Assembly (NCBI GenBank): GCA_963677925.2
Contig: CAXXYH010000003.1
Location: 352,001-416,000 of the forward strand
DNA length: 64,000 nt
From: Spirochaetia bacterium
GTDB lineage: Bacteria > Spirochaetota > Spirochaetia > UBA9216
Direction of reading: 5' to 3'
Shown: positions 1-15,448 of the stretch, piece after piece
Layout: every line of letters starts with the position of its first letter
Numbering within the stretch: position 1 is the stretch's first letter
Translations under genes and position numbers: made by a program
Notes under the pieces: generated by a model
Databases searched by the model: none
Told to the model about the DNA's origin: nothing
The model's input: only the letters and a program-made list of their open reading frames with translations

Positions 1-2
1 AA

Positions 3-371
3 TCAATTGATGACTTCGTAGGTCTTGCAGTTAAAAGTATCGTACCTGCCGAAGAACTCGATAGAGATTTCAAGGTTTACCCGCAGATCGATTACGATAA
101 ATGTGTAAGCTGCGGCAGATGCTATGTATCCTGTTTTGACGGAGCTCATCAGGCGATCACCTGGGATCAGGAAAATAGAAAAGTCGCCATTGATGAAGAT
201 AAGTGTGTAGGCTGTCATCTCTGTCTGCATGTATGTCCGGTTGCCGGCTGTATAACTCCGGGCAAAGTTGTTTTCAAACCCGAAGATCAGTTCGGAAAAG
301 GAAGCGAAGCAGTATATACAGAAAATGCTCCTTGTAAACGCGAAATAGTTGTCGGGGAGTATGACCAGTAA
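3..371 (+). CDS. preA: NAD-dependent dihydropyrimidine dehydrogenase subunit PreA, C-terminal part (5' truncated by window edge)
   Basis: Not in the ORF track. Frame +3 is open from the edge to TAA 369-371 and reads [52 protein letters not shown]...[19 protein letters not shown]. It has two 4Fe-4S motifs with the CxxCGRCYxSCxDGxHQAI signature of PreA. Confidence 0.85.
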
Positions 372-444
372 ACAATAAGAATTCAATTAAGAAACATTTA
401 TTGTTTAAGAGTAAACCAATATTCATAATACAATTTCTGATTTC

Positions 445-476
445 GGCTGACCGGCAACCCCGGTCAGCTTTTTTTT
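445..476 (+). terminator. intrinsic terminator after preA
   Basis: GCTGACCGG (446-454) / CCGGTCAGC (460-468) stem followed by a T-run. Confidence 0.8.
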
Positions 477-1365
477 ATTTTGGCAAAAATATCGATAGAA
501 ATGACTTTTTATCTTCAGTTCTTTTATTAAAACCTTCAATAGGCGTGTTCATCAAATATCCCATAACAAGCTGTTCTGCATTTTCCCTGTTATCGTTGTT
601 ATTGAAGATAAACTGATATTCATCAAGATATTCCTGAAGGAACTGCTCTGAGACATTATGATGACCGTTTCTAAGTCCGTATTTAACATCCTGCAGAACA
701 ATATGAATATTCATAAACTTTCCGCCGTAAGCGGTGATGGAGCTTTTCTGTTTAAACCTGTTTAATTCGAGCCAATTTCTTAAATACAGTTTTTGAGGGT
801 CAACGATAAATACTGTATTTTTATCAAAATTCTTTTTAAAATAATCCTTTATATTCATTTCATCAGGATTTTTAACCATTCTAAGAGAAAGCCTTTTCTC
901 ACCTGACATTTCAAGAGCTCCAAGAATACTTACTTTCCGGTAATCCTCTCCCTGCCCTCTTTTTATAATTTCATCAAACTCAACTTCTCCCACCAAATGT
1001 TCATCCTCTCTGTGAAAAGAGATTGCATACCTGATTTTTCTTAGTGCATTCCAGGCACTTCTGTAAGATCCCAGCGGGATCTCCCTGAATATTGTTTTTG
1101 CTGTTATAACCCTGTCGGCTGAATTGATCATCAGTTTGATTATACCTGACCATTGCTCAAGGCTTATATGAGATCGGTGAAGCATTGTCCCGGCAAGCGG
1201 TGATTTTTCAGATCGGCAATGTCTGCATACGGCAATTCTTTTTACAGGCTTTTCCCAGAATTCCTTCCCTCCGCAATTTTTGCAGACCATCCCTTCCGGA
1301 AACTTTAATTGAATTAAATTTTCAAAAGATTCCTGTTCTTTATGGTAATTTATGTTCTTTTTCAT
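475..1365 (-). mobile_element. IS1595-family transposase-like ORF, degenerate; no paired terminal inverted repeats seen
   Basis: Zn ribbon CKNC...CRHC, AGTMLHRS, SYRSAW, GEVEFDE, FIVD, NIHIVLQDVK and HHNVSEQFLQEYLDEY match IS1595-type DDE transposases. ATG 1365 preferred over TTG 1395. Confidence 0.75.
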
Positions 1366-1514
1366 AATTTTTTGAATTTTAACATTGTTTTTCAATATTG
1401 TGGTACTAAAGTGGATATGTTAGAGAATTTTCTGTATTGACAGTTTTTTTCTTTCACATTTAACCTGAATTAGAGTTATGCATTACTCAAAAAATAAAAA
1501 TATTCGGAGGAAAA

Positions 1515-1649
1515 ATGTTTGGTTTACCACCGGTAACAGCCCTTGTGCTGTTTGGTTTCCCGCTTTTCTGGCTTGTCTATACATTGATATTTTTCGTCAA
1601 AACCAGGAACTGGGTTGAAGACTCTGAAAAACAGGGAGGAAAGGAATAA
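1515..1649 (+). CDS. 44-aa single-TM small protein, probable accessory subunit of the downstream symporter
   Basis: Not in the ORF track. GGAGG RBS 1506-1510, ATG 1515, MFGLPPVTALVLFGFPLFWLVYTLIFFVKTRNWVEDSEKQGGKE; its TAA overlaps the next ATG (TAATG at 1647-1651). Confidence 0.8.
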   Translation: MFGLPPVTALVLFGFPLFWLVYTLIFFVKTRNWVEDSEKQGGKE

Positions 1650-3196
1650 TGAATCCTGTCGTCCTCGTATTTTTAATTATTTATTATGTGGTTGTTGTCC
1701 TAATCGGCTTTTGGGCCGTTAAAAAAGGCGGAGCCAAAGATCTTGAAGGTTATCTTCTTGGCGGCCGTCAGGTCGGCCCGCTGGTAACAGCAATGACTCT
1801 GCAGTCCACTTCCATGAGCGGTTACATGTTCCTGGGAGGCGGTTCTGAAGGATTCAGGGCCGGATACTGGGCAATATGGTATGCTTCAGGCGATATAGGA
1901 GGCGGTGTTGTCAATCTGTCTGTTATAGGCCGGAGAATGCGTAAACTGTCAAAAATACTCGGGTCTCTTACTTCAATAGAATATCTTGAACATCGGTATC
2001 CGCATCCTGCTACCAGAATTATCAGCGGAGGTCTTTCGGTCTTCCTTCTATATTTTTACGTTCTGGCACAGTTTATTGCCGGAGGAAAAGGTATGGCACT
2101 CGTTACAGGCCTTCCATACGGTGCGGCTCTAACTATTGCTGTAGGCATCATTATGCTGTACACATTCCTTGGCGGTTATTTTGCTGTTGCTTATACTGAC
2201 TTTTTCCAGAGTCTTGTGATGATTGTTGGTATGCTCTGGATATTTATTGCAACGCTTGTAAATGTAGGAGGTTTCACTGCTGCTAATATTGCAATTGGAG
2301 AACTTGATCCAACCTATCTTTCGATATGGGGAAAGGATCTTCAGTTTCATAACAACTGGGGAGAGATTTTAGGTGCAGTATTAATATTCTCAGTAGGTTA
2401 TATGGGATGGCCTCATGTTGTTACAAGACATATGGCAATGAAGAGTCCTAAAACTGCACGTATGGCAGCTGTTTATTCCACTATCTGGAATCTTTTCTTT
2501 GTCACAGCCCCCTATCTGCTCGGTATTTTCGCAATTCTTATTCTACCGAATCTTGCAGACCCTGAAATGGCAATCTTCACACTGGCACAGGAACTTCTGC
2601 CTCCTGCTGTAACCGGAATTGTTATGGCCGCAATAATGGCTGCCATTATGTCAACTGCAGATTCGATTCTTCTACAGGTCGGAACTATTGCTTCCAGAGA
2701 TATATTCCAGCGGTTCATTAACCCGAAAGCCTCTGACAGCCAGATGGTATGGGTTTCAAGATTTCTGGTAGCCGGAATGGGAATTATCGGCTTGGTAGTT
2801 GCCCTTGTAAGTCCTCCGGGAGTCTTTTCAATAGTTACTTTTACCACATCAGTTCTTGGTAGCGCCTTCCTGCCGGCATATGTATGTGCCGTGTGGTGGA
2901 AAAAAGCAAACACAAAGGGTGCTCTGGCTTCAATAGTCGGCGGTGCTTTAATGGCATTTATCGCCAAAAAGACATCAATTCCGCTGCACCCGATGCTTGC
3001 AGGACTTATTGTTTCATGGCTGCTGATGATAGTTGTCAGCCTTGCAACACAGAAATCATCACCAGTTGCAGAGCATATTATTAAGGCAATGAATGAGGCT
3101 GCAAGTTTAGGCCCCATCCCAAAAGAAATGCTTGCCAATGCTGATTTCGATCTCTCAGGTGAGGCAAGTGCCATCAATAAAAAATTAAAAAGCTGA
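1649..3196 (+). CDS. sodium:solute symporter (SSS, PutP-like)
   Basis: About 13 hydrophobic segments; YLLGGR, YTFLGGYFAVAYTDFFQS and AAIMAAIMSTADS are SSS motifs. Confidence 0.9.
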   Translation: MNPVVLVFLIIYYVVVVLIGFWAVKKGGAKDLEGYLLGGRQVGPLVTAMTLQSTSMSGYMFLGGGSEGFRAGYWAIWYASGDIGGGVVNLSVIGRRMRKLSKILGSLTSIEYLEHRYPHPATRIISGGLSVFLLYFYVLAQFIAGGKGMALVTGLPYGAALTIAVGIIMLYTFLGGYFAVAYTDFFQSLVMIVGMLWIFIATLVNVGGFTAANIAIGELDPTYLSIWGKDLQFHNNWGEILGAVLIFSVGYMGWPHVVTRHMAMKSPKTARMAAVYSTIWNLFFVTAPYLLGIFAILILPNLADPEMAIFTLAQELLPPAVTGIVMAAIMAAIMSTADSILLQVGTIASRDIFQRFINPKASDSQMVWVSRFLVAGMGIIGLVVALVSPPGVFSIVTFTTSVLGSAFLPAYVCAVWWKKANTKGALASIVGGALMAFIAKKTSIPLHPMLAGLIVSWLLMIVVSLATQKSSPVAEHIIKAMNEAASLGPIPKEMLANADFDLSGEASAINKKLKS

Positions 3197-3213
3197 TAAG
3201 CTCATAAATCCCT

Positions 3214-3248
3214 GGAACTCCCCTTACAAATCAGGGGAGTTCCTTTTT
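3214..3248 (+). terminator. intrinsic terminator
   Basis: GGAACTCCCCT / AGGGGAGTTCC 11-bp stem plus T-run. Confidence 0.8.
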
Positions 3249-3260
3249 CGGAGTTATTTA

Positions 3261-3746
3261 TTGTATATCGACGCTATTGAATCGACTATAACAAGAGAAG
3301 ACGCGGCCTCTATCCTGCAGGCAAAAACTGCCAGCATAATTCCCAGAGTTCAGAAACTGATATACTACCCTTATTACTGGGTATTTTTTTCTTTCAGAGT
3401 AAAAACTCTTTTCGGAATGGGCCGGGAAAATAAAGCATCATGTCTTGTCGATATGATTAATAATCAGGCATCAACAACTGATTCCTTTAAACATTTTGAA
3501 GTTGAAGTCCCTGATGAAAATATCCTTGAGAGTGATTTCAGCCGGGAGGAATCCTTAAAAACTGCCAGAACATATCTTAACCATGCCGCCATGCATAAAA
3601 TGAAGGCACTGGTAGTTCCGCAGGCAGAAATTATTGAAGAAAAAAAAATACATAAACCTTTCTGGATAGTAAAATGTTTTAACCAGGATAACAGTCATTT
3701 CACCATGATTGTTGATGCCGTAACAGGCAAATATCAGAATTTATAG
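3261..3746 (+). CDS. hypothetical protein
   Basis: 161-aa ORF, TTG start after GGAG; YYPYYW, HKPFW and C-terminal VDAVTGK motifs. Confidence 0.7.
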   Translation: MYIDAIESTITREDAASILQAKTASIIPRVQKLIYYPYYWVFFSFRVKTLFGMGRENKASCLVDMINNQASTTDSFKHFEVEVPDENILESDFSREESLKTARTYLNHAAMHKMKALVVPQAEIIEEKKIHKPFWIVKCFNQDNSHFTMIVDAVTGKYQNL

Positions 3747-3755
3747 GAGATATCT

Positions 3756-4538
3756 ATGCTGAAGTTCCTTTTTTTACCAGGTGCGCTTTTTCTCGGTGTT
3801 ATCCTGCTCAGGGTGGTCATCCCCTATATCTCAACTGCCGGCTGGAAAAGACTGCTGGACAGTTCACGATATGCAAAATTTCATAAAGACTTTCCAAAAG
3901 CAGATAAACTGCTGGAGAAGGCTGTTGAAAAGTATCCGGGCCAGCCTGAAGTATATCTTGAATATTTTCTCAACCATAGCGACACAAAGAATATAGCACA
4001 GAGATTCAGCATACTGAAAAATGGATATGAAAAAACAAAGGATACCGCTCTTGCCTTTTTCTTAGGTTCAACCTACCTTGAGCATGGAGATTTTGAATCA
4101 GCCGAGTTCTACCTCAGCAGCCCTGAATGCAGGGCATATATGCAGGCCAGACGTCTCACCTTGCTTCCTCAACTGTATTACGAACAGGGGCGCCACACTG
4201 AAGCTGAAAATGAATTTATAGATTTCTATTCAAATTTATTCGGTATTGCAAAAAAAGATTTTGAAAACAGCCTTGATCGCCTTTCACCCCAGGAACTGCT
4301 TACCCTTGCTATGATAAAAAAGGAATCTGGAAGTGACTATTCCGAAATACTGGAACTGGCACCAAAAAGCAGTTTTCATTCTGATATGAGCTGGAAGGAT
4401 CTTCTACAGTCCCTTAAAGAAAGTTTCAACGCTCTTGAACCGGCAGTTACAGGTATTAATGGCGATCCCGGAGAGTTCAACCGGCGAAGAAAGGATTATT
4501 ACAGCAGGCGGATTCAGCTTATTGAATCATATCTATAA
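3756..4538 (+). CDS. membrane-anchored TPR-like protein
   Basis: AGGAG RBS; N-terminal TM; helical repeats such as LGSTYLEHGDFESAEFYL and LYYEQGRHTEAE. Confidence 0.7.
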   Translation: MLKFLFLPGALFLGVILLRVVIPYISTAGWKRLLDSSRYAKFHKDFPKADKLLEKAVEKYPGQPEVYLEYFLNHSDTKNIAQRFSILKNGYEKTKDTALAFFLGSTYLEHGDFESAEFYLSSPECRAYMQARRLTLLPQLYYEQGRHTEAENEFIDFYSNLFGIAKKDFENSLDRLSPQELLTLAMIKKESGSDYSEILELAPKSSFHSDMSWKDLLQSLKESFNALEPAVTGINGDPGEFNRRRKDYYSRRIQLIESYL

Positions 4539-4573
4539 AAAAACCGCCGAATTTCTCCGGCGGTCGGTTTTTT
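4537..4573. terminator. bidirectional terminator
   Basis: A-run, CCGCCG/CGGCGG stem, T-run between convergent genes. Confidence 0.7.
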
Positions 4574-4588
4574 CAGATTTATTTAATC

Positions 4589-5911
4589 CTACAGCAGGTT
4601 CTCATCTACCCAGGTAGCAACCTTATCAAGGATATCAAAGGCTTCCTGAAGTTCAGCTTCTGTAATAATAAGAGGTGGTGAAACTGCAACCATATTTTCA
4701 TGTGAATATGTTACAAAACCGTTTTCTCTTAATTTACCAAGTATCTGTTTCATAAGACCTTTAGGATCTTTTGCATAAGGAACAAGCGGTCCATTGTTTT
4801 TATCAACAAACTCAACCATACCGAAAAGGCCGATATTTCTGCAGGGACCGACTGACGGATGCTTAGCCTGAAGTTCTGCCATCATCTTAGCCATCACAGG
4901 CCCCATCTTTTTGGAATTGTTAATTAGATCAAGTTCTTTGTAAACTTCAATTGTAGCAATACCGGCTGCACATCCAAGAAGGTGTGCGCTGTATGTAAGA
5001 CCGCAGTAGAGAACATTATCTTCAAAATGTTCAGCAATCGCTTTAGAAACTATTGCACCGCCGATTGGAGCATAACCGCATGTAACACCCTTTGCAAAAG
5101 TTACGATATCCGGCTTAACATCCCAGTTCATGAATGCAAACCATTCCCCGGTTCTTCCCCAGCCTGCCATAACTTCATCACAGACCATCATAATACCGTA
5201 TTTATCGCAAAGTGCTCTGACACCTTCAAGGTAACCCTTCGGCGGAATGAGAACACCGTTAGAACCAACTACAGTCTCAAGGAAAATAGCGGCAACATTG
5301 TTTTCGCCTTCCCAGATAATCTGTTCTTCAAGCTTTGCAAGACAGTATTTTGAATACTCTTCTTCGCTGCCGAATTTAATTACCGGTTCTCTTTCAATAT
5401 ACGGATTAAAGAATTTTACAAAACCGGCTATACCAGGTTCTGAAGGAAATCTTCTTGGTTCACCTGTAAGGTTTGCTGCACCATAGGTTGCACCGTGGTA
5501 TGATCGGTAACCGCTGAAAATCTTCTGCTTACCGGTAACCATTCTTGCAATCTTGATTGCATTCTCGTTTGCTTCCGCACCTGCGTTTGTAAAGAAGATT
5601 TTTCCCATAAAAGGAACAATTTCTTCAATGATTTTTCTTGCAAGTTCAGATCTTACATCAACTGCGTAAGCAGGTCCGATAAACGGCATTTTTTCAGCCT
5701 GGTCCTGAATAGCCTTGATGATCTTCTTGTTTCCATGACCAACGTTCATGTTAACAAGCTGAGATGACATATCATAGTATTTTTTACCATCTGCATCCCA
5801 GAAAAAGATTCCTTCCGCCTTATCAACCACTATTGGATTTAGTGCTTTCTGAGAACTCCATGAATGTAAATTGTATTTCTTATCTAGAGCCCTTATCTCT
5901 TCACCAGCCAT
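4589..5911 (-). CDS. class III PLP aminotransferase (beta-alanine/taurine-type omega-aminotransferase)
   Basis: SYHGAT, DEVMAGWGRTG, PDIVTFAKG (PLP lysine), GLTYSAH. Confidence 0.9.
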   Translation of the reverse strand: MAGEEIRALDKKYNLHSWSSQKALNPIVVDKAEGIFFWDADGKKYYDMSSQLVNMNVGHGNKKIIKAIQDQAEKMPFIGPAYAVDVRSELARKIIEEIVPFMGKIFFTNAGAEANENAIKIARMVTGKQKIFSGYRSYHGATYGAANLTGEPRRFPSEPGIAGFVKFFNPYIEREPVIKFGSEEEYSKYCLAKLEEQIIWEGENNVAAIFLETVVGSNGVLIPPKGYLEGVRALCDKYGIMMVCDEVMAGWGRTGEWFAFMNWDVKPDIVTFAKGVTCGYAPIGGAIVSKAIAEHFEDNVLYCGLTYSAHLLGCAAGIATIEVYKELDLINNSKKMGPVMAKMMAELQAKHPSVGPCRNIGLFGMVEFVDKNNGPLVPYAKDPKGLMKQILGKLRENGFVTYSHENMVAVSPPLIITEAELQEAFDILDKVATWVDENLL

Positions 5912-6029
5912 GCTTTACCCTCCATAGCTAAAGTTAAATATTGGTTAACCGGTAATTACTCCGGTAAATTAATTACAATCGCTGTACCACAGCTTTTGAA
6001 AAAAATCAATATTCTGATACAATATCCGC

Positions 6030-6215
6030 ATGAATAACGATGATAAAACATGCGACTACTGTGAAGCCCTTCAAGGTGACAGCTGCCAACTAGGTTATAA
6101 GCTGGAACCTCTTTATTTTTCAATCTGCTACCGGACTGATGGTTACAAACCGGAAACCGATTGCCCAGGGCCGTTTAAAAAAGGCGGCGAAAAAAATTTC
6201 CGCCGCCCTGAATAA
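6030..6215 (+). CDS. 61-aa cysteine-rich small protein, apparently leaderless
   Basis: CDYC plus three more Cys; TTGAAA (5996-6001)-16 nt-TG-extended TACAAT (6018-6023) ends 6 nt before the ATG; no RBS. Confidence 0.5.
   Translation: MNNDDKTCDYCEALQGDSCQLGYKLEPLYFSICYRTDGYKPETDCPGPFKKGGEKNFRRPE
6177..6207 (-). terminator. intrinsic terminator of the aldehyde dehydrogenase gene
   Basis: GGCGGCG/CGCCGCC stem; A-run at 6177-6182 gives a U-tract on the minus strand. Confidence 0.7.
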
Positions 6216-6228
6216 TCATTCAAAAGGC

Positions 6229-7626
6229 CTATTCGTACATTACTGTTCCGAAAAGTTCCTCATCACTCGGCATTGTATTTGCGATTTCATAAGAAACCCA
6301 TGTATAGTTAAGAAGGTGCTTGTAAGTGATGTTCTCAGAAGCAACGTTTCCGCCCCATGTACCGCAACCGAGAGTCATTGACATCGGCATACCGTTTGTC
6401 CATGCACCTGAGTTGGCAAGACACTGCGGCTGATTAACCATGATTCTTGAAACTTTTACTTTTCTACCAAGTTCCTTAACTTTCTTGTCATCAGTTGTAT
6501 GAATACCGCATGAGTGACCTGCACCTGAGTAGTCAGTAATTCTGTTTACGAGCTCAACTGCGTCTTCGAAAGTCTTGTATTTGTAAAGTGTTGTTACAGG
6601 TGAAAGTTTTTCGCCTGAGAAAGGAGCGTCAGCTCCAACTTCTGTTTCAGGAACCATGATGAAGCATTTGTCATCGCCCATTGAAAGACCGGCAAGTTTT
6701 GCGATCTTCTGAGCAGGCTGTGCAACAATGTTTCTTGAAAGTGTGTGACCATCTTCCCACATTGTATCCTGAAGTTTTTTCTTGTCGGCAGCATCAGCTA
6801 CATAGTAACCGCCTTCTGCTTCCATTGCTTTAACCATGTCATCATAGATGCCTTCCTGAATAAGGACAGCATTTTCAGTTGAACAGCTTGTAGCATGATC
6901 AAAAATCTTTGATCTTTTAATCTTGTTTGCTGCATCAGCAAGGTTTGCTGTAGTATCAATAATACTTACTGCATTTCCTGCACCTACACCGTAAGCAGGA
7001 GTACCGCTTGAGTAAGCTGCTTTAACCATTCCTGCACCGCCTGTAGCAACAACAAGGTCAGCCTGCTTCATAAGCTCATTACTGGCTTCTACAGAAACCT
7101 GATCAATGTTGATTACGAGGTCTTCAGGAAAACCGCCCTTTTTAAGAGTAGCTCTGATAGCATCAACAGCCATCTTGTTTGTACCCTTTGTTCTTGGGTG
7201 CGGAGAAAGGATGATTGCATTTCTGGTTTTAATTGCCCAGAGAGCCTTAACAAAAGGAGTAGCTTCAGGGTTTGTACAGGGTACAAGAGCTCCTACTGCT
7301 CCAATCGGCTTTGCAAACTTCAAAAGACCTTTCTCTTCATCAGTCTCAACAAGACCACAGGTCTTTTTACCCTTCATATCACGAAGAGTTCCCTTAACTT
7401 TTGAATAGATTTTAGCTACTTTGTCGGGAGCGAAACCCATTCCTGATTCTTCTGCAGCAAACTCACCGAGTTTTTTTGCGAATTCAGGATTACATCCGGC
7501 CCAGGCGACTCTAACACACATTTCATCAACCTGTTCCTGTGTAGCGAATTCTATTTCTTTCTGGGCTGCGTGTGCTCTGTCAATGAGACCGGCAATATAT
7601 GCAGCCGCTTCTTTTGGATCTGCCAT
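6229..7626 (-). CDS. CoA-acylating aldehyde dehydrogenase (SauS/EutE-like, stand-alone)
   Basis: PCTNPEATP, ATGGAGMVKAAYSSGTPAYGVGAGN, FDHATSCSTEN (catalytic Cys), GEKLSP, GHSCGIH, TLGCGTWGGN. ATG 7626 follows GGAGG. Confidence 0.9.
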   Translation of the reverse strand: MADPKEAAAYIAGLIDRAHAAQKEIEFATQEQVDEMCVRVAWAGCNPEFAKKLGEFAAEESGMGFAPDKVAKIYSKVKGTLRDMKGKKTCGLVETDEEKGLLKFAKPIGAVGALVPCTNPEATPFVKALWAIKTRNAIILSPHPRTKGTNKMAVDAIRATLKKGGFPEDLVINIDQVSVEASNELMKQADLVVATGGAGMVKAAYSSGTPAYGVGAGNAVSIIDTTANLADAANKIKRSKIFDHATSCSTENAVLIQEGIYDDMVKAMEAEGGYYVADAADKKKLQDTMWEDGHTLSRNIVAQPAQKIAKLAGLSMGDDKCFIMVPETEVGADAPFSGEKLSPVTTLYKYKTFEDAVELVNRITDYSGAGHSCGIHTTDDKKVKELGRKVKVSRIMVNQPQCLANSGAWTNGMPMSMTLGCGTWGGNVASENITYKHLLNYTWVSYEIANTMPSDEELFGTVMYE

Positions 7627-8021
7627 CTTTTCCTCCATTTTACGAGATATTAACTAGGACTATGACCAAACAGAATCATACCATCACCTTAATCCTCTTT
7701 CCTCCATAGGTCAAGGTTAGAATATAAGAAAAAAACAGTTTTTTTTAGCGCAAACATTTTTATAACAAATTTAACTTGACGGATCTTCCTAACATAACAT
7801 AAAATCATTTGTTGTATTTTCAGTGCTTTTATTTTAGTTGACTTTCATCCATAGAACTGATAAGGATATCTATATAAATGATGTTTAACACCAGAAGTTT
7901 TTTTTTATCACACACCACACACACTTTCGACGAACTTAATAATCCAGAATACTGCAGCACTTTTTTATATAGGGAGTAACAGGATGTTTATCATCCTGAA
8001 AAATATTTTTTTGGAGGATTT

Positions 8022-9545
8022 ATGAGCGACGAAGCAAACAAAGGCGGCGGATGGGTAATTTACCCTATCGGCAGCCGACCCAAGTGGGGACTTGCATTCC
8101 TTCTTGGTGCTCAGCAGTTCCTGACACAGTTCGGATCAACAGTAATTATTCCGATCATTGTCGGTGGAGCTATGGGGCTTCCTACTGAAGAACTAGCACT
8201 TCTTATTTCTACAATGTTCTTCTGTGCCGGAATTACAACCCTGATTCAGCAGTCACCTATTGGTAATAAACTGCCGATTCTGCAGGGTGGTACTTTCTCA
8301 TTCCTTGGACCTATGTTCGCAATTGTTGGTATGTGTGCAGCAGAGGGACTTGGATACGAGGTTATGATTCAGCAGGTTTGTGCAGCCGTAATGATTGCAT
8401 CACTGTTTGAAATTATAATTGGCTACACAGGACTTATGGGACTGATCAAAAGAGCATTCAGTCCGATAGTTATCGGTCCTACAATTGCAATGATTGGTCT
8501 TGCACTTTATGGAGTTGGTGCTCCATGGATGGCTGGAAACTGGGTTATTTCACTTATAACCTTTGTAGCAATCGTTGTTTTCTCACAGATTTTCTCAAGA
8601 AAGTCTAAGGTTTTTGCTCTTTTTCCGATACTTCTTGCTGTTATCCTCGGATGGCTCTGCTCACTTATCGGAACTTTTACCGGTCTTATTCCTGAAGGCG
8701 ATGCAGCTAACCTTAAAAACGGAATTGAACTCATTGGTTCAGCACCTGTTTTCTGGATTAAACCTGCTATTCCTTTCAAATGGGGATTCCCGTCATTTAA
8801 TGCTATTACAGCAGCAGGTGCACTTGGAATGCTCGCCGGTTATGTTGGGTCAATGATTGAATCAGTAGGTGACTACTACTCATGTGCAAGAATTGCAGAA
8901 GCACCTGTTCCTACAGCAAAAGTTATCTCTAAGGGTATCGGAGCTGAAGGTATCGGATGTCTTATTGCTTCAATATTCCAGACATGTAACGGTACAACTT
9001 CCTACTCGGAAAACATTGGATCAATCGGTCTTACAAGAGTTGCCAGCCGCCGTGTTATCAGGGCAGCCGGTATTATTCTTCTTGTACTCCCCTTCTTCGG
9101 TAAGTTCGGAATGGTTCTTGCAACTCTTCCTCAGCCTATCGTAGGAGCACTTTTCTTTGCTATGTTCGGTCTTATTGCTGCAACCGGTCTTTCCAACCTG
9201 CAGTTTACAAACCTTAACAATGCAAGAAACCTCTTTATTGTAGGTGTCGGTTTCTTTGCCGGACTTACAGTTCCTGCACATTTCAACGCTGCTTCCATGG
9301 TTGCCGGTGATGCCGGTTCTGCACAGTATGTTATAACCAACATACTTCAGACCATTTTCACAACCGGAATGGCTGTTACTGCTATCATTACCATGATACT
9401 TGACAACCTTCTTCCCGGAGCAACAAGAGAAGAAAGAGGTCTTACTGTATGGGAAGCTGAAGCCAGCGATGAAGCCTGGGAAAAGGCTGAAGCCGAGTGG
9501 GCGAAAATTCCTGTTGGTCAGGCTAACTGGCACGTTATGAAATAG
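8022..9545 (+). CDS. NCS2-family uracil/xanthine permease
   Basis: LQGGTFSF, IESVGDY, TTSYSENIGSIGLTRVASRRV (NAT signature); GGAGG RBS. Confidence 0.9.
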   Translation: MSDEANKGGGWVIYPIGSRPKWGLAFLLGAQQFLTQFGSTVIIPIIVGGAMGLPTEELALLISTMFFCAGITTLIQQSPIGNKLPILQGGTFSFLGPMFAIVGMCAAEGLGYEVMIQQVCAAVMIASLFEIIIGYTGLMGLIKRAFSPIVIGPTIAMIGLALYGVGAPWMAGNWVISLITFVAIVVFSQIFSRKSKVFALFPILLAVILGWLCSLIGTFTGLIPEGDAANLKNGIELIGSAPVFWIKPAIPFKWGFPSFNAITAAGALGMLAGYVGSMIESVGDYYSCARIAEAPVPTAKVISKGIGAEGIGCLIASIFQTCNGTTSYSENIGSIGLTRVASRRVIRAAGIILLVLPFFGKFGMVLATLPQPIVGALFFAMFGLIAATGLSNLQFTNLNNARNLFIVGVGFFAGLTVPAHFNAASMVAGDAGSAQYVITNILQTIFTTGMAVTAIITMILDNLLPGATREERGLTVWEAEASDEAWEKAEAEWAKIPVGQANWHVMK

Positions 9546-9561
9546 TATTTACTATTTATAG

Positions 9562-9588
9562 CAGGGGTGGAAACACCCCTGTTTATTT
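9562..9588 (+). terminator. intrinsic terminator
   Basis: CAGGGGTG-GAAA-CACCCCTG then TTTATTT. Confidence 0.7.
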
Positions 9589-9609
9589 AGTTTAGGATGG
9601 AGTTTCTGA

Positions 9610-9990
9610 TTGACAAATAAAAAGAGCCTGATTATTTATATTATACTAGCCCTGCTTATGGCACTTGACCTGTATTCGATTTTCAATGCAGGAAATCCCA
9701 ATTCGTTTATCAGACACTTGGTCCCCGATCCTGGATATGATTTTTTAATAACAGCGATAATCTCACTGTTGATTGTTGCAAGTGTTCTTATTCTGAACAG
9801 CGGCAGTAAAAACAACGATGATCCTGTATTCATGACACTTCGTGATAACAGCGATCATATTCAAAAACTCAGATCCAAGGGGAAAAGTGATGAAGAAATA
9901 GCCTCATCATTTGTTAAAAACCTTAAGGAAACAGGCGTAGTAAAAAAACTGGCTTATAAAAAAGCATTAAAATACTTAAAAAGGATCTGA
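9610..9990 (+). CDS. hypothetical membrane protein (2 TM)
   Basis: GGAG RBS, TTG start, two hydrophobic segments, basic C-terminus. Confidence 0.65.
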   Translation: MTNKKSLIIYIILALLMALDLYSIFNAGNPNSFIRHLVPDPGYDFLITAIISLLIVASVLILNSGSKNNDDPVFMTLRDNSDHIQKLRSKGKSDEEIASSFVKNLKETGVVKKLAYKKALKYLKRI

Positions 9991-9993
9991 TGA

Positions 9994-10434
9994 ATGGACT
10001 ATCTTGTAAACCTATCTCCTGTTGCTCTTGGTGTTATTATTTTTGCCATTGTTATTCTTATGGCTATCATCAGACATAGAGAAACAGGTTTTCTTACTTC
10101 AAAATATGATTCATCCAGTATAATACTCGCCTCTTACGGGGTTACTTTTTTCGGGCAGGAATCAAAAGTTGAAAAACCTAACAGAAAGACCGGAGCAATT
10201 GCACTGGTTAAAGACGGGATTTATTACCATTCCCGTTTTGGTAATATCGAACATTTTGTAAAAGCTTCCGACATCAAAAATATCGGTACTACTGATTTCT
10301 TTTGCGATAAAGCATTGAATGATACTGTTATTCAGGTATCTTTTAAGAATGATAAGGGTGAACTTGACCGTGTTGCTTACCGCATACCTTCACCGGCAAA
10401 ATGGATAGTAACATTAAAAAAACATCTTTTATAG
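9994..10434 (+). CDS. hypothetical membrane-anchored protein, possible PH-like domain
   Basis: N-terminal TM; GAIALVKDGIYYHS...DIKNI...W pattern is reminiscent of PH/GRAM folds. Confidence 0.65.
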   Translation: MDYLVNLSPVALGVIIFAIVILMAIIRHRETGFLTSKYDSSSIILASYGVTFFGQESKVEKPNRKTGAIALVKDGIYYHSRFGNIEHFVKASDIKNIGTTDFFCDKALNDTVIQVSFKNDKGELDRVAYRIPSPAKWIVTLKKHLL

Positions 10435-10665
10435 ATTTTTTTTAGTTATACATGTTTGCGTTATCATTGAATATTTGTTCTTTTTAACGATGGATTTAAG
10501 TCAAGGGTTGACATTCGTACCATTTTAAGCGAATTTAGTCCTTAATATCAGACAATGATACAATTTCCGGAGGGTATCCATCATTAAATTCCGTATTTAG
10601 TTTCCGTAATACGCTTCTTACGGTAAATTCATGGCAATCTTCTTATATAGAGGGAGGAGAAGAAA

Positions 10666-12216
10666 TTGGGTAACAAAGAAAAGTTACAGGAGTTTAAAGA
10701 CTTCAGAGCAAAAATGCAGAAGGGCGGCGGCGACGCCAGAATCAAAGCCCAGCATGATAAAGGGAAATTTACTGCCAGAGAAAGGATCACCGGACTTCTG
10801 GATGAGGGAAGTTTCGTTGAAAGCCAGGCATACATCCAGACCCGCACCAGCCAGTTCGGCATGGATAAAAACAAGTTTGCCGGCGACGGAGTCGTAACCG
10901 GAACAGGCAAGATGAACGGCAAGCAGGTATTCCTGTCAGCCCAGGATTTTACCGTTCTCGGCGGTTCACTTGGAGAAATGCATGCCGAAAAGATTGCAGA
11001 GGCCCAGAGCCTTGCACTAAAAAACGGTTCACCGTTTATCCAGGTCAACGATTCAGGCGGAGCAAGAATCCAGGAGGGAATACTCTCACTCAACGGATAC
11101 GCCAAAATTTTCAGGAATAACACCCTTTCATCAGGAGTTATCCCCCAGTTTTCAGTAATACTCGGTCCCTGTGCCGGAGGTGCAGTTTACTCACCGGCCA
11201 TCACCGACTTCATATTCATGGTAGACGGTTCAAGTCACATGTACATCACCGGTCCGGATGTAATAAAGACAGTAACCGGTGAGGTAATCAGCCACGAAGA
11301 CCTCGGCGGAGCATCAGCTCACTGTGCAAAAAGCGGAGTCGCCCACTTCCGTTTTTCATCCGAGCAGGAATGTTTTGATTTCATCAGAAGACTTATGGAC
11401 TACCTGCCTTCAAACAACACAGAGCAGCCGCCGGTAAGTGCCTGTACAGATTCACTTGAAAGAACCACACCCGAAATCATGTCGATCATCCCCGAAGAGG
11501 CAAGAAAGCCCTACGATGTACGCGACATAATCGGAAGCGCCTTTGACGCAGGTTCATTTCTTGAAGTACAGGAAGACTTCGCAAAAAGCGTAGTAGTAGG
11601 TTTTGCAAAACTCAACGGCCGCACTGTAGGTATCTTTGCAAACCAGCCTAAGTTCATGGCTGCCTCACTCGATATCAACTCATCAGATAAGGGAGCAAGA
11701 TTCATCCGCTTCTGTGATGCTTTCAATATTCCGGTAATCACACTTGTTGATGTTCCCGGCTACCTTCCCGGCGTTGCCCAGGAGCACGGCGGAATCATCA
11801 GACACGGAGCAAAGATCCTCTACGCAATAGCAGAGGCGACAGTGCCCAAGGTTTCACTGATTATGAGAAAGTCCTACGGCGGTTCAATGATAGCAATGTC
11901 ATCCAAGTCACTTGGATACGACAGAGTCCTAGCCTACCCGACAGCAGAAATAGCAGTAATGGGAGCAGAGGGCGCAGCAAACATCATATTCAGAAAGGAC
12001 ATCAACTCAGCATCGGATCCTGAAGCAAAGAGACAGGAAAAGATAGCAGAGTTCCAGACAGAGTTCATGAACCCCTACGTAGCCGCAGGCCTTGGTCTTG
12101 TAGACGATATAATCGACCCCGAATACACCCGTGCAGAACTCATCAGAGCGCTTGAGATCAACATCAAAAAGCGCGAAGACAGACCTGCCAAGAAACACGG
12201 CAATATACCACTGTAG
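10666..12216 (+). CDS. mmdA: acyl-CoA carboxyltransferase, Na+-transporting (methyl)malonyl-CoA decarboxylase alpha subunit
   Basis: QDFTVLGGSLG, DSGGARIQEG, GPCAGGAVYSPA, DVPGYLPG, KKHGNIPL; GGAGGAG RBS, TTG start. Confidence 0.9.
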   Translation: MGNKEKLQEFKDFRAKMQKGGGDARIKAQHDKGKFTARERITGLLDEGSFVESQAYIQTRTSQFGMDKNKFAGDGVVTGTGKMNGKQVFLSAQDFTVLGGSLGEMHAEKIAEAQSLALKNGSPFIQVNDSGGARIQEGILSLNGYAKIFRNNTLSSGVIPQFSVILGPCAGGAVYSPAITDFIFMVDGSSHMYITGPDVIKTVTGEVISHEDLGGASAHCAKSGVAHFRFSSEQECFDFIRRLMDYLPSNNTEQPPVSACTDSLERTTPEIMSIIPEEARKPYDVRDIIGSAFDAGSFLEVQEDFAKSVVVGFAKLNGRTVGIFANQPKFMAASLDINSSDKGARFIRFCDAFNIPVITLVDVPGYLPGVAQEHGGIIRHGAKILYAIAEATVPKVSLIMRKSYGGSMIAMSSKSLGYDRVLAYPTAEIAVMGAEGAANIIFRKDINSASDPEAKRQEKIAEFQTEFMNPYVAAGLGLVDDIIDPEYTRAELIRALEINIKKREDRPAKKHGNIPL

Positions 12217-12231
12217 GAGGCGGAGAATTTT

Positions 12232-12618
12232 ATGCAGGAAGAATTTATTTACAGTGTTATGACATCAATACTTGGAATACTGATAGTGTTTACACTGTTG
12301 GTCCTTCTGAGTCTGCTGATGGTTCTGATAAAGAAATTTGCAGACGGTGATACAGCCAAAAGCAAAGCGCCGAAATCTGCCGGGACATCTTCAGCAAAGA
12401 AGAGCGGCGGCCTGCCCCTGCCAGTAATAGTTGCAGCAGCAACTGCTACAATGGCCGATAACGCGAAATGGCTTTCGGCTGCGGTATCAGCGTTTCTGGC
12501 AGCTGAGGAAGATGAGCAGAATGCCCCAAAGGCTTCAGGATGGAGTTCAGCGGGAGCAGCAAAGTATGACCCGTGGGTCGCAAACAATAAAATCACAAGA
12601 AAAGCACCAGGAGTATAA
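12232..12618 (+). CDS. mmdD: decarboxylase delta subunit (OadG family)
   Basis: N-terminal TM GILIVFTLLVLL, linker, AAVSA segment, C-terminal Trp; lies between alpha and biotin carrier genes. Confidence 0.75.
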   Translation: MQEEFIYSVMTSILGILIVFTLLVLLSLLMVLIKKFADGDTAKSKAPKSAGTSSAKKSGGLPLPVIVAAATATMADNAKWLSAAVSAFLAAEEDEQNAPKASGWSSAGAAKYDPWVANNKITRKAPGV

Positions 12619-12623
12619 GAGTT

Positions 12624-13100
12624 ATGAGCAAGAATATTAAGTTTGAATATGAAGGAACCCTTTACGACATAAACGTAACAAGAAACGGAAATGTCCTTAC
12701 AATTGAGCATGAAGGCGATAGTTACCTTGTAAGCCTTGCAACCCCTGCAGGAGCAACAGCAGCTCCTGTAGCAGCGCCCGCTGCGCCTGCAGCTCCTGCT
12801 GCACCGGCAGCGCCTGCACCGGCAGCTGTAGCACCCTCTCCCGCAGCCGCCGCGCCGGCACCAGCCGCCGCCCCTGTAGCAGCCGGAGCCGGAACCGAGA
12901 AGGCTGCAATAACAGGAACAATCAAGGAAATCAAGGTAGCCCAGGGCGCAAGCGTAGCCAAGGGAGATCTTCTTCTGATAATGGAAGCAATGAAGATGGA
13001 CATTGAAGTATTTGCAAGCAACGCCGGTACAGTAAACGCCATCCATGTAACTCCGGGTACAAACGTAACCGAAGGACAGCCGCTTGTAGACATCGGCTAA
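12624..13100 (+). CDS. mmdC: biotin carboxyl carrier (gamma) subunit
   Basis: Ala/Pro-rich linker and EAMKM biotinylation motif. Confidence 0.9.
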   Translation: MSKNIKFEYEGTLYDINVTRNGNVLTIEHEGDSYLVSLATPAGATAAPVAAPAAPAAPAAPAAPAPAAVAPSPAAAAPAPAAAPVAAGAGTEKAAITGTIKEIKVAQGASVAKGDLLLIMEAMKMDIEVFASNAGTVNAIHVTPGTNVTEGQPLVDIG

Positions 13101-13109
13101 CGGAGGGAT

Positions 13110-14279
13110 TTGGTGAATTTCGTAGATCTAATATTAAGATTTCTAAGCAGCACCGCCTTCACGGCAATCACCTGGCAGAACCTGGTAATGATTGCAATCG
13201 GCTGTCTGCTTGTTTACCTTGCAATAGCAAAGGGTTATGAGCCGCTGCTGCTTATCCCGATAGGATTCGGAGCAATACTGGTAAACCTTCCGCTTACAGG
13301 GCTTTTGGAAGGACCAATCGGAGACCAGGCCGGCGGACTTATATATTACTTTTATCAGGGTGTTCAGCTTGGACTGTTCCCGCCGATTATCTTCATGGGA
13401 ATCGGAGCGATGACGGACTTCGGACCGCTTCTGGGCAAGCCTCAGACCTTCCTTCTTGGAGCAGCTGCACAGCTTGGTATATTTATAACCCTGCTTGGAG
13501 CAAAGGCACTTGGAGCAATACCCTTTCTTGCAGCGCATGATCTGGGCTTCAACTTTGCAGAGGCCTCTTCCATCGCAATAATCGGAGGGGCTGACGGTCC
13601 TACAGCTATATATCTCACATCAAAGCTTGCACCGCATCTGCTTGGACCTATTGCAGTAGCAGCCTATACGTATATGGCGCTTGTACCGATTATACAGCCG
13701 CCTATTATCAAGGCTCTTACAACCAAGAAGGAGAGACTTATCAGGATGGAGGATCCGAAGCCTGTTTCAAAACGGACCAAGATTCTTTTCCCGATAATCA
13801 CAACAATAGTTACAGCCCTGCTTATTCCTGCATCTGCACCGCTAATCGGAATGCTAATGCTTGGAAACCTTTTCAAGGAATGCGGAGTTGTAGACAGGCT
13901 TTCAAAGACAGCCCAGAACGAGCTTATCAACATAGTAACGATATTCCTTGGAATATCAGTAGGCTCAAAGATGTCAGCCGACCACTTCCTTACATTTGAG
14001 ACGATATTCATTATAGTCCTCGGATGTATAGCATTCGGAGTAGGAACCGGCGGCGGAGTTATGCTTGGAAAGCTGATGAGCAAGATAAGCGGCGGAAAGA
14101 TCAATCCGATGATCGGAGCCGCGGGAGTATCTGCTGTACCGATGGCTGCGCGGGTAGTACAGAAGGTCGGCCAGAAAGAAGATCCGGGCAACTTCCTGCT
14201 TATGAACGCAATGGGCCCCAACGTAGCCGGAGTTATAGGCTCTGCAATTGCTGCGGGTGTTCTATTGTCGCTTAATTAG
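13110..14279 (+). CDS. mmdB: Na+-transporting decarboxylase beta subunit
   Basis: [45 protein letters not shown] (OadB family). Confidence 0.93.
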
Positions 14280-14299
14280 TTTAAAAACGGTTTCAATTC

Positions 14300-14337
14300 A
14301 GGCTGTCCGTGAGTAATCTCCGGACAGCCTTTTTTTT
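14300..14337 (+). terminator. intrinsic terminator of the decarboxylase operon
   Basis: AGGCTGTCCG/CGGACAGCCT stem plus T-run. Confidence 0.8.
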
Positions 14338-15134
14338 CAGACACGCGGTGCTGTCGAAGGGTCCATAGGCTTACCGTTTTTATATACAAAAAAATAGGCA
14401 TCCGCCTTTCCGTCTGCTCCGCCCAGGATTCCGATAGAGCTTCCTGAAATAATCCGGTCTCCTACTTTTACAGTACTTTTCTCATTACCGCCGTAACCGT
14501 AGACGAGACCGTTATCAGACTCGACAAGAATCAGAAATTTATACATACCGTAATCGTCTGCCCAGACAACCGTACCGCTTGAGACAGCAGTAATACTGTC
14601 GCCTGGGTTTCCCGAAATCTGGATGCCTTTCAATTTCCCGTCAAGAGGTGCTCTGGCTCCGGTATGAGGCCATAGAACGTTTATTTCAGCTTTATCGGGT
14701 TCATCTGCAGTTTCAACTGCAGAACCCTCAGAACCCCCGTTCTCGGGCTTCTGAGCGATTACAACAGTCTTCTCATCGCTAAGACTGCCTGCAGGGATAG
14801 CCAGAATCTGTCCTGGATATAGCACATCTGAAATCTTCAGTTCATTACTGCTCAGCAGTTCCTCAAGACTGATATTATGCTTTCTTGCAATACCGTAAAA
14901 GGTGTCACCCTTCTTAACTGTATAGCCGGAGGGAATAAGGATTTTAATCCCGGGATATATCCTTGAAGCATTCTCTATATGGTTGTATTCCATCAGCTGC
15001 TGAACAGAAACATCATATTTTTTGCTCAAACTATAGAGGGTGTCGCCTTTCTGAATCAGATACTCAGAATCAGCATATACACTACCCGACACTGTAATTA
15101 TTAACGCTGCTGCTATAAACGGTACTCTTCTCAT
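14337..15134 (-). CDS. LysM-LysM-M23(LytM) protein with degenerate Zn site (NlpD-like)
   Basis: Signal peptide from ATG 15134; two LysM repeats (YLIQKGDTL, YTVKKGDTF); M23 fold with KGIQI and DAYF in place of HxGxD and HxH. Confidence 0.8.
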   Translation of the reverse strand: MRRVPFIAAALIITVSGSVYADSEYLIQKGDTLYSLSKKYDVSVQQLMEYNHIENASRIYPGIKILIPSGYTVKKGDTFYGIARKHNISLEELLSSNELKISDVLYPGQILAIPAGSLSDEKTVVIAQKPENGGSEGSAVETADEPDKAEINVLWPHTGARAPLDGKLKGIQISGNPGDSITAVSSGTVVWADDYGMYKFLILVESDNGLVYGYGGNEKSTVKVGDRIISGSSIGILGGADGKADAYFFVYKNGKPMDPSTAPRV

Positions 15135-15209
15135 CGTATTTAGATATTCGGCCAGCCTTCTTTTAAACTGAAAAACTATTAAAATCATAAAAAAGATTTT
15201 TATAACTTA

Positions 15210-15238
15210 TTGACAGTTTTTCTCCAGTTCGCTATATT
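15210..15238 (+). promoter_or_regulatory. sigma70 promoter for tRNA-Asp
   Basis: TTGACA-17 nt-TATATT. Confidence 0.7.
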
Positions 15239-15251
15239 ACATCTACCTTCT

Positions 15252-15325
15252 GGGGGCGTGGCGAAGCTGGTTATCGCGCCGGCCTGTCAAGCCGGAGATC
15301 GCGGGTTCAAGCCCCGTCGCTCCCG
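15252..15325 (+). tRNA. tRNA-Asp(GTC)
   Basis: Cloverleaf; anticodon arm CCGGC-CTGTCAA-GCCGG; GGTTCAAG T-loop; CCA not encoded. Confidence 0.95.
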
Positions 15326-15330
15326 AAAGT

Positions 15331-15360
15331 AGCCCTTAAAGATTTCTTTAAGGGCTTTTT
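15331..15360 (+). terminator. terminator-like hairpin between the two tRNAs
   Basis: AGCCCTTAAAG/CTTTAAGGGCT stem plus T-run. Confidence 0.6.
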
Positions 15361-15365
15361 ATTTA

Positions 15366-15437: not shown

Positions 15438-15448
15438 TACCCCTTCAG

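Follow-up and report, generated by a model that had tools for sequence, protein, structure and literature searches.

A locus at the start of a 64,000-nucleotide stretch of a Spirochaetia bacterium genome (contig CAXXYH010000003.1, C3:352001–416000; hereafter the window, with positions counted from its first nucleotide) probably encodes an energy-conserving end to an anaerobic degradation route. We propose, with a probability of about 0.62, that malonate semialdehyde is here oxidized to malonyl-coenzyme A (malonyl-CoA) by a CoA-acylating aldehyde dehydrogenase (ALDH) and that the thioester is then decarboxylated by a Na+-pumping, biotin-dependent membrane enzyme, MmdADCB. A first-pass annotation of this DNA had suggested the same sequence from semialdehyde to malonyl-CoA to Na+ pump, and our analysis supports it on three independent grounds. 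The ALDH clade adjoins an mmdA-like gene in 16 of 78 loci and replaces IolA/MmsA in inositol, valine and pyrimidine clusters; it branches apart from true SauS, whose gene has other operon partners; and the genome lacks a methylmalonyl-CoA mutase while carrying 99% identical decarboxylase genes in a malonate operon. The genes named by that annotation are all present where it had placed them, or nearby, as judged by open reading frame (ORF) listing and by Pfam and NCBIfam scans.

The genome is 5.04 Mb in size and 99.6% complete. Window proteins were scanned against Pfam and NCBIfam, and bit scores were compared with curated cut-offs. For the ALDH we collected 80 loci encoding homologues of 50–84% identity, called and clustered their ORFs and named the clusters using NCBIfam, Pfam and blastp; two loci were dropped for want of a full-length ALDH ORF, and all counts cover the remaining 78. 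Collected loci carry L numbers and genomes G numbers, with L001 denoting the 20 kb directly upstream of the window. The 78 homologues come from Spirochaetota, Bacillota, Bacteroidota, Verrucomicrobiota, Chloroflexota, Pseudomonadota and other phyla.

The ALDH gene (6229–7638, − strand) encodes a CoA-acylating enzyme of the AdhE/EutE/SucD type (AdhE model, 426.5 bits; EutE-type model, 364.4 bits). The nearest solved structure is an acylating succinate-semialdehyde dehydrogenase (SucD; PDB 8cei, 328.5 bits), and the catalytic cysteine, C248, is invariant in an alignment of 16 homologues. The best-scoring curated family is SauS (NF047625), matched with 553.6 bits against a cut-off of 600. Many homologues bear the automatic JGI names 'sulfoacetaldehyde dehydrogenase' or 'aldehyde dehydrogenase family protein'. 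We propose that the enzyme is a (methyl)malonate-semialdehyde dehydrogenase forming (methyl)malonyl-CoA.

Gene neighbourhoods point to this substrate. In 13 of the 78 loci, the ALDH lies inside a cluster with at least three members of the set IolB, IolC, IolD, IolE, IolG and IolJ-like aldolase, and in most of these 13 we noticed no other aldehyde dehydrogenase. It lies near preT, preA or dihydropyrimidinase-like genes in 11 loci, a tally that takes in weak matches (25–36% identity; L035, L040 and L041) and five non-independent close relatives. One such cluster (L025) combines preA, preT, an NCS1 permease, a dihydropyrimidinase, a sigma-54 regulator, the ALDH, an aminotransferase and an M20 amidase, and two others (L042 and L087) are similar. 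An aminotransferase is the immediate neighbour of the ALDH in 15 loci, the full pyrimidine clusters L025 and L042 among them. The surroundings that MmsA has in valine catabolism, an acyl-CoA dehydrogenase and an ECH_2 hydrolase, are found around the ALDH in two loci by tally (L078 and L088) and in a third by gene order (L075). The clade appears to stand where IolA or MmsA would in clusters of all three kinds. This placement in three unrelated pathways that share (methyl)malonate semialdehyde as a product is the strongest evidence for the substrate of the dehydrogenase.

The product is suggested by a second kind of neighbour. An mmdA-like carboxyltransferase gene adjoins the ALDH in the 16 loci mentioned above, in most cases as the next gene downstream in the same orientation, and lies within 10 kb in 24 of the 78. 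Such a recurrent carboxyltransferase neighbour argues that the product keeps its carboxyl group and would therefore be (methyl)malonyl-CoA. One gene for the membrane subunit (OAD_beta) was found elsewhere in the genome in all five tested genomes with an ALDH–mmdA pair, and in four of five further ALDH-bearing genomes. A transaldolase-like neighbour accompanies the ALDH in seven loci and GlcDEF-like oxidase genes in three. The latter (L033, L056 and L059) carry GlcD/GlcF-like FAD and CCG-domain oxidase genes, to which L056 and L059 add an mmdA-like gene and a TRAP transporter gene; judged by gene content, these loci could encode a route from a hydroxy acid, perhaps 3-hydroxypropionate, to malonate semialdehyde. 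Two Sphaerochaetaceae loci (L040 and L041) hold a row consisting of a xanthine-dehydrogenase-like molybdenum enzyme, an M20 amidase, the ALDH, an mmdA-like gene and a dihydropyrimidinase-like amidohydrolase (30% identity), which could link the pair to anaerobic purine or oxidative pyrimidine breakdown.

We set the ALDH against true SauS proteins from a sample of 400 genomes of the class holding L078 (G258 was left unscored). Proteins above the SauS cut-off occur in 20 of these genomes, scoring 626–792 bits, and 18 kb was examined around 12 of the 20, chosen for their long contigs. Next to SauS, 11 of the 12 have s1, from a putative transporter set of three genes (s2–s5–s1, no NCBIfam match), and 10 have an AMP-forming acyl-CoA ligase; mmdA, aminotransferase, iol and pyd genes are near none of the 12. 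These loci resemble the SauS context described in the accessible part of PMC10413351, in which a SauXYZ transporter with the TctC-family binding protein SauZ accompanies the ligase SauT. SauS-type ligase and transporter-like genes were absent from the window in Pfam and NCBIfam scans.

A quick maximum-likelihood search (LG+G4, 104 rows) placed the window protein and 78 homologues together with the 20 SauS proteins, two sub-cut-off proteins and three paralogues from the same genome as outgroup, leaving out L130 (from G049, a genome on which none of our claims depends) and L132 (a partial gene). All 20 SauS rows group together (support 100), and the window protein falls into the sister clade, of 81 rows (support 94). 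Within this clade, the window protein belongs to a starred subclade of 34 rows holding most of the carboxyltransferase-adjacent members. Six positions are fixed differently between the window clade and SauS (H147/S, G201/S, P404/A, Q405/H, S410/G and L423/M). No cationic residue was found that is common to both anionic-substrate clades yet absent from the genome's three acetaldehyde-type paralogues. The two enzymes are alike in being of the same fold class and closest curated kin, and the substrate of SauS is the sulfonate isostere of malonate semialdehyde; they differ in that the window protein scores below the cut-off, belongs to a separate sister clade and has no CoA ligase or transporter-like genes beside it. 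The dehydrogenase would work like SauS, as an acylating dehydrogenase acting on a beta-anionic acetaldehyde, yet it falls outside SauS by score, clade and operon.

The decarboxylase is encoded by four consecutive genes on the + strand. The carboxyltransferase (alpha) subunit, mmdA (10666–12216), matches PF01039 with 632.8 bits and the curated mmdA model TIGR01117 with 781.3 bits (cut-off 998.8), a shortfall that fits a shifted specificity; we propose that the subunit is specific for malonyl-CoA. It is followed by a small OAD_gamma/MmdD-like membrane subunit with an N-terminal hydrophobic stretch (12232–12618; PF04277, 26.0 bits against 27; TIGR01195, 31.4 against 36.05) and by the biotin carrier, mmdC (12624–13100; PF00364, 59.6 bits), which has an Ala/Pro linker and the sequence EAMKM, the biotinylation motif that carries biotinyl-lysine. 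The last gene encodes the beta subunit, a Na+-translocating carboxybiotin decarboxylase (13110–14279; PF03977, 539.1 bits; TIGR01109, 520.4 bits, above 190.6).

Blastn of window positions 1–16000 against the genome revealed that this block is duplicated: 10687–14334 (+ strand, 3,648 bp) has a 99.0% identical copy at C3:1249620–1253267. The twin mmdADCB lies behind genes, on the same strand, for HutP, a family-III CoA-transferase and the two parts of a malonate/Na+ symporter, MadL and MadM (C3:1249620–1256469; L109:8620–15469). This operon looks like one for malonate uptake, activation to malonyl-CoA and decarboxylation, that is, malonate fermentation, and malonyl-CoA would be the only plausible substrate in it. 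The genome holds two carboxyltransferase genes and two beta-subunit genes in total. Methylmalonyl-CoA mutase (PF01642) has no match in this genome, whereas 8 of 14 control genomes do have one; it was not found in the genomes of the three closest relatives either and is present in two more distant ones. The classical source of methylmalonyl-CoA is therefore missing, and with the nearly identical copy in a malonate operon this leads us to read the pump as a malonyl-CoA decarboxylase. For want of a mutase we rejected a housekeeping role for mmd in succinate-to-propionate fermentation. No MadM was found in the five relatives whose gene arrangement matches that of the window, which suggests that the position of mmd beside the NCS2 permease gene is the older and the malonate operon a newer use.

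Na+-pumping decarboxylation of malonyl and methylmalonyl thioesters is classical, and the methylmalonyl-CoA decarboxylase of Veillonella reportedly accepts malonyl-CoA as well. The window system shares with the Veillonella and Propionigenium enzymes a carboxyltransferase, a biotin carrier and a beta-subunit pump; it differs in its alpha subunit, which falls below the mmdA cut-off, and in belonging to a genome without the mutase and hence without a succinate-to-propionate role. As in the malonate fermentation of Sporomusa malonica, which runs via malonyl-CoA, and the Na+-pumping malonate decarboxylase of Malonomonas rubra, decarboxylation of activated malonate would drive Na+ export, and the twin mmd with MadLM and the CoA-transferase looks like a malonate system of this type. 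At the window locus, in contrast, malonyl-CoA would arise by oxidation of an aldehyde and not from free malonate, and the substrate would be bound to CoA, not to acyl carrier protein as in Malonomonas.

The genome offers few other fates for malonate semialdehyde. No MmsA/IolA above the TIGR01722 cut-off was found in it (best 323.5 against 448.5 bits, for a gene outside the window). It has two myo-inositol clusters (C4:1618700–1630508 and C4:1052087–1064963) with IolB, IolD, IolE, IolG and ABC transporter genes; IolA, IolC and IolJ were found in neither. As both clusters lack IolA and the monocistronic dehydrogenase gene of the window is the only candidate sink, the dehydrogenase and pump may be regarded as a hub, with pyrimidine or beta-alanine breakdown among its feeders. 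The module looks broader than pyrimidine catabolism, a malonate-semialdehyde hub that would also serve the two inositol clusters. The cluster at C4:1618700–1630508 includes a transaldolase-like gene, 63% identical to the neighbour of ALDH–mmdA pairs elsewhere; this gene adjoins the pair in five loci (L026, L027, L030, L035 and L065) and occurs in the clusters of two more (L024 and L039), both without IolC. The arrangement may reflect a form of inositol catabolism that depends on a transaldolase and needs no kinase.

The same enzymes may bear on the supply of malonyl-CoA. Biotin carboxylase (PF02785) has no match in the genome, whereas 13 of 14 controls match, and no AccD was found in it, the only carboxyltransferases being the two mmdA copies; there is thus seemingly no acetyl-CoA carboxylase. 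A full-length FabD-like gene lies at C3:840005–840874 (248 bits, just under 260.9), and a polyketide synthase-like acyltransferase domain at C4:883919. Candidate sources of malonyl-CoA are the dehydrogenase route, the malonate CoA-transferase and a reversed pump, and members of the dehydrogenase clade may be a source of malonyl-CoA for lipid synthesis in this spirochaete.

The class-III (omega) aminotransferase gene (4589–5911, − strand; PF00202, 292 bits; PRK06062, 529.9 bits, above 472) lies downstream of the ALDH gene on the same strand, and its product is proposed to be a PydD-like beta-alanine:2-oxoglutarate aminotransferase. The nearest characterized relative is the taurine:2-oxoglutarate aminotransferase (Toa) of Bifidobacterium kashiwanohense, whose structure is solved (PDB 6jix; 477.4 bits, ~55% identity). 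Aminotransferases closer than Toa, with 63–70% identity to that of the window, sit in the full pyrimidine clusters L025 and L042, and no sulfonate-specific gene was seen among the clusters that were named. Context favours carboxylate over sulfonate substrates. Three genomes of one genus encode aminotransferases 53–54% identical to that of the window followed by an iron-dependent alcohol dehydrogenase, pairs that fit Toa/TauF as well as PydD/PydE. Among 301 sampled genomes of the phylum the aminotransferase occurs in five.

Upstream of these genes, the window opens within preA, which encodes the FMN/Fe–S subunit of NAD-dependent dihydropyrimidine dehydrogenase. The C-terminal part (3–371, + strand; NF006183, 124.7 bits) includes a 4Fe–4S dicluster; the part upstream of the window (L001:19064–19999) matches the same model with 451.4 bits, above 335. 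A PreT/GltD-like gene (L001:17763–19061) abuts preA, which makes the dihydropyrimidine dehydrogenase pair complete; no PreT equivalog model is among the matches listed for it. preTA adjoins the module in five related loci (L010, L011 and L014–L016). The first-pass annotation had cautioned that preT, dihydropyrimidinase and ureidopropionase are missing from the window. Of these preT has turned up next to preA, and the other two steps have candidates that are unlinked: no dihydropyrimidinase or carbamoylase gene is adjacent in the 20 kb upstream, and the genome encodes two dihydropyrimidinases (TIGR02033, 571.1 and 515.9 bits, above 393.25; C3:289587–290960 and C3:435884–437245, ~62 kb before and 20 kb after the window) and two M20 carbamoylase-family amidases (TIGR01879, 373.1 and 344.6 bits, above 204), one of them ~40 kb upstream beside glutamate dehydrogenase. 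The pyrimidine pathway could be completed on paper in this genome, its clustering being seen just in other lineages (L025 and L042). A phosphate butyryltransferase-like gene stands ~5 kb upstream of preT (L001:12167–13081, + strand; 372 bits, below the 399 cut-off of its best model), and L015 has retained a 64% identical counterpart close to preT. The enzyme could convert acyl-CoA to acyl-phosphate for ATP gain.

Together these genes suggest the following course. The NCS2 nucleobase:cation symporter, encoded divergently from the dehydrogenase (8022–9545, + strand; PF00860, 248 bits), would import a nucleobase; if this is uracil, PreTA would reduce it, and dihydropyrimidinase and the M20 carbamoylase would yield beta-alanine. 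The aminotransferase would then convert beta-alanine and 2-oxoglutarate to malonate semialdehyde, as its context indicates. With CoA and NAD(P)+, the SauS-like dehydrogenase would form malonyl-CoA without loss of CO2, a step to which the recurrent carboxyltransferase adjacency points. MmdADCB would finally move the carboxyl group to biotin, decarboxylate it in the membrane and export Na+, leaving acetyl-CoA, which could yield ATP via acetyl phosphate. The scores of the beta subunit and the biotin carrier establish their families; malonyl-CoA as the substrate is suggested by the twin's malonate operon and the missing mutase. In this way malonate semialdehyde would be handled as a CoA thioester at the end of an anaerobic route, and the free energy of its decarboxylation would be kept. 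The dehydrogenase and pump would probably also take malonate semialdehyde from the two inositol clusters, and, more speculatively, the same enzymes could turn thymine or 3-aminoisobutyrate into methylmalonyl-CoA and then propionyl-CoA. Uracil as the source is the least secure part of this course, and the substrate of the aminotransferase the next.

Several observations weigh against this course, and most of them bear on one of three other readings. Taurine is an isostere of beta-alanine and sulfoacetaldehyde one of malonate semialdehyde, so that homology is unable to separate a carboxylate from a sulfonate route. The nearest characterized relatives of the aminotransferase and dehydrogenase are precisely Toa and SauS, the latter being the best curated family of the ALDH. 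On this basis Toa and an acylating sulfoacetaldehyde dehydrogenase could turn taurine into sulfoacetyl-CoA and sulfoacetate with ATP gain, preTA, NCS2 and mmd being unrelated neighbours. The first-pass annotation had already pointed to taurine and sulfoacetaldehyde as possible substrates. The automatic JGI names agree with such a route, the phosphate butyryltransferase-like gene would suit it, and oxidative use of SauS homologues is mentioned in the part of PMC10413351 available to us. We consider it very unlikely all the same. The dehydrogenase scores below the SauS cut-off and lies outside the SauS clade, although the tree is a quick LG+G4 search in which the 81-row clade, at support 94, is not starred. 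None of the 12 SauS loci shares the window's neighbours, and the window is without the SauS ligase and transporter-like genes. The clade's inositol, pyrimidine and valine clusters have no use for a sulfonate, nor would a carboxyltransferase have any for sulfoacetyl-CoA; the genome lacks Xsc (best 341.5 against 676.4 bits); and the aminotransferases from full pyrimidine clusters are closer to that of the window than Toa is.

A decidedly unlikely alternative accepts malonate semialdehyde as the substrate and lets the dehydrogenase release acetyl-CoA and CO2, as an analogue of MmsA/IolA. The malonyl-thioester intermediate might decarboxylate on the enzyme, as MmsA chemistry makes feasible. On this reading, mmd would serve only malonate or another carboxylated acyl-CoA and would be near by chance or through shared regulation. 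In keeping with this, 54 of the 78 loci, including most inositol clusters, have no mmdA within 10 kb, and 27 have none of the scored contexts, many of these being on short contigs. The ALDH and mmd genes of the window are separate transcription units on opposite strands, and the twin mmd has a clear substrate source of its own in malonate. Against the proposed course in general, the locus comprises at least six transcription units, so that its genes need not be co-regulated, and the alpha subunit falls short of the curated mmdA cut-off. Carboxyltransferase adjacency in 16 loci from several phyla is, however, hard to explain without release of a carboxylated CoA ester, and all five tested genomes with an ALDH–mmdA pair have the beta subunit. 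In the sampled phylum the ALDH clade occurs in 5 of the 301 genomes (that of the window included), too sparsely for a test of co-occurrence; all five have OAD_beta, but OAD_beta is present in 124 of the 301, which makes this weak evidence. In G432 and G499 the ALDH and OAD_beta genes lie within about 3.5 kb of each other. The block of NCS2, two small membrane protein genes (u126 and u146) and mmd remains beside the ALDH–aminotransferase pair through rearrangements (L017 and L022), and the relatives in which MadM was not found still keep mmd at the window position.

It is also possible, if unlikely, that the module processes beta-alanine or 3-aminoisobutyrate imported as such, perhaps via the SSS symporter, and that PreTA and NCS2 have another role, for instance in purine or salvage metabolism. 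The dihydropyrimidinase and carbamoylase genes are unlinked and solitary, lying 20–62 kb off in unrelated contexts. The NCS2 protein is nearer to xanthine than to uracil permeases, though below both cut-offs (pbuX model, 212 bits against 414; uracil permease model, 79 against 477). The accessible text of PMC7332683 places PreTA of Escherichia coli outside a full pathway. Two loci (L040 and L041) tie the ALDH–mmdA pair to a xanthine-dehydrogenase-like enzyme. Set against this, preTA remains beside the module in the five related loci named above, and in L025 and L042, which are unrelated, it shares a cluster with dihydropyrimidinase, an M20 amidase and an NCS1 permease.

The gene order of the locus exceeds chance, to judge from its retention in related spirochaetes down to 63–70% ALDH identity, rearranged forms included (L010, L011, L014–L017 and L022). 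The dehydrogenase and aminotransferase genes run divergently from NCS2–u126–u146–mmdADCB. That the locus forms several transcription units, as the first-pass annotation had stated, is borne out by terminator-like hairpins after preA, SSS, TPR/aminotransferase, ALDH and NCS2. The hairpin after preA (445–469, + strand) has 10 pairs and a T-run; that after the SSS gene spans 3214–3243; and one acting on both strands (4542–4565) separates the TPR and aminotransferase genes. An intrinsic terminator with hairpin and T-run directly follows the dehydrogenase gene (6176–6208, − strand; folding of 6165–6232 gives −28.1 kcal/mol, z = −3.8), and a terminator-like site follows the NCS2 gene (9560–9583). 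In the gap between aminotransferase and dehydrogenase genes we spotted by eye a small cysteine-rich ORF of ~60 codons (about 6030–6215, + strand), preceded by a promoter-like site at 5996–6023.

Between NCS2 and mmdA lie u126 (9610–9990, + strand, 126 residues) and u146 (9994–10434, + strand, 146 residues), small membrane proteins of no known family: neither has a Pfam or NCBIfam match, and the Atlas gives just 'hypothetical' clusters. Both are kept at this place in six loci (L010, L011, L014, L016, L017 and L022), and the short contig L012 carries u126 alone. On the other side of the locus, an IS1595-family transposase-like gene (475–1395, − strand; NF033547, 83 bits, above 75) follows preA. 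Homologues lie between SSS and preA in L010 and L011 (56–57% identity) and L014 (34%). For a mobile element it is unusual to diverge this far while staying in one place, which points to a domesticated gene. The SSS-family Na+/solute symporter (1649–3196, + strand; PF00474, 230.9 bits; PutP and PanF models below their cut-offs) is syntenic at 77–83% identity in L010, L011, L014 and L015 and is a candidate importer of beta-alanine or a related solute. The same four loci retain the next two genes, for a 161-residue protein with no Pfam or NCBIfam match (3261–3746, + strand) and a TPR protein (3756–4538, + strand). G+C content is 0.48–0.51 over the mmd genes (window 10001–15000) against 0.36–0.44 in the remainder of the first 20 kb. 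The rise stems in part from the biotin carrier, whose linker is rich in Ala and Pro; a foreign origin, or the codon usage typical of strongly expressed genes, may also contribute. Rfam found no riboswitch or other regulatory RNA in window 1–15300, the only matches being one small RNA at chance level and a tRNA (15252–15300, + strand, 33.4 bits) cut by the end of the scanned stretch.

The proposed ending differs from those described. The accessible text of PMC7332683 gives two ends to the reductive pyrimidine pathway, PydD/PydE leading to 3-hydroxypropionate, or MSDH/MmsA leading by oxidative decarboxylation to acetyl-CoA. With the Pyd clusters of Bacillus, Lysinibacillus and Clostridium in that account, the present route would share dihydropyrimidine dehydrogenase, dihydropyrimidinase, carbamoylase and a class-III beta-alanine aminotransferase that gives malonate semialdehyde; it would part from them in using an AdhE-type acylating dehydrogenase and a membrane biotin decarboxylase, in a genome without an MmsA-type enzyme. 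The non-carboxylative malonyl-CoA pathway, as outlined in the available part of PMC12799670, is engineered for biosynthesis from BauA and a reversed malonyl-CoA reductase domain. It likewise transaminates beta-alanine to 3-oxopropanoate and oxidizes this to malonyl-CoA, whereas the route here would be natural and catabolic, with an unrelated dehydrogenase. In Anaerostipes, inositol is converted to propionate by a CoA-transferase that activates 3-oxopropionate, followed by reduction (PMC8355322, accessible part). That fate of inositol-derived 3-oxopropionate is also anaerobic and free of IolA; the clade described here would instead oxidize 3-oxopropionate to malonyl-CoA. In the open full-text literature, a scope outside which most subscription journals lie, we found no description of malonate semialdehyde feeding a Na+-pumping decarboxylase through malonyl-CoA. 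What is new would be an ending for known catabolic pathways, in which a functionally new clade of a familiar enzyme family is combined with a pump of known type.

We give even odds to the wider claim that the sister clade of SauS, widespread and hitherto uncharacterized, consists of CoA-acylating (methyl)malonate-semialdehyde dehydrogenases that take over from MmsA/IolA in anaerobes and that it, together with a biotin-dependent Na+-pumping malonyl-CoA decarboxylase, makes the last decarboxylation ion-gradient-forming in the breakdown of uracil or beta-alanine, of myo-inositol (including the transaldolase variant without IolC/IolJ), of hydroxy acids and of valine. The breakdown of pyrimidines, beta-alanine and inositol converges on malonate semialdehyde, and that of valine on its methyl form. 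The textbook enzymes waste the free energy of decarboxylating the semialdehyde, and anaerobes live on small energy margins; malonyl-CoA formation coupled to a Na+ pump would win back a fraction of an ATP for each molecule. If true, this would explain the absence of IolA/MmsA from many anaerobes with inositol or pyrimidine clusters and would give a function to a large clade now named automatically as 'sulfoacetaldehyde dehydrogenase' or 'aldehyde dehydrogenase family protein'. The locus would then also be a naturally occurring equivalent of the synthetic non-carboxylative malonyl-CoA pathway, and its dehydrogenase a natural enzyme for the shortcut from beta-alanine to malonyl-CoA that is now engineered with a reversed reductase.

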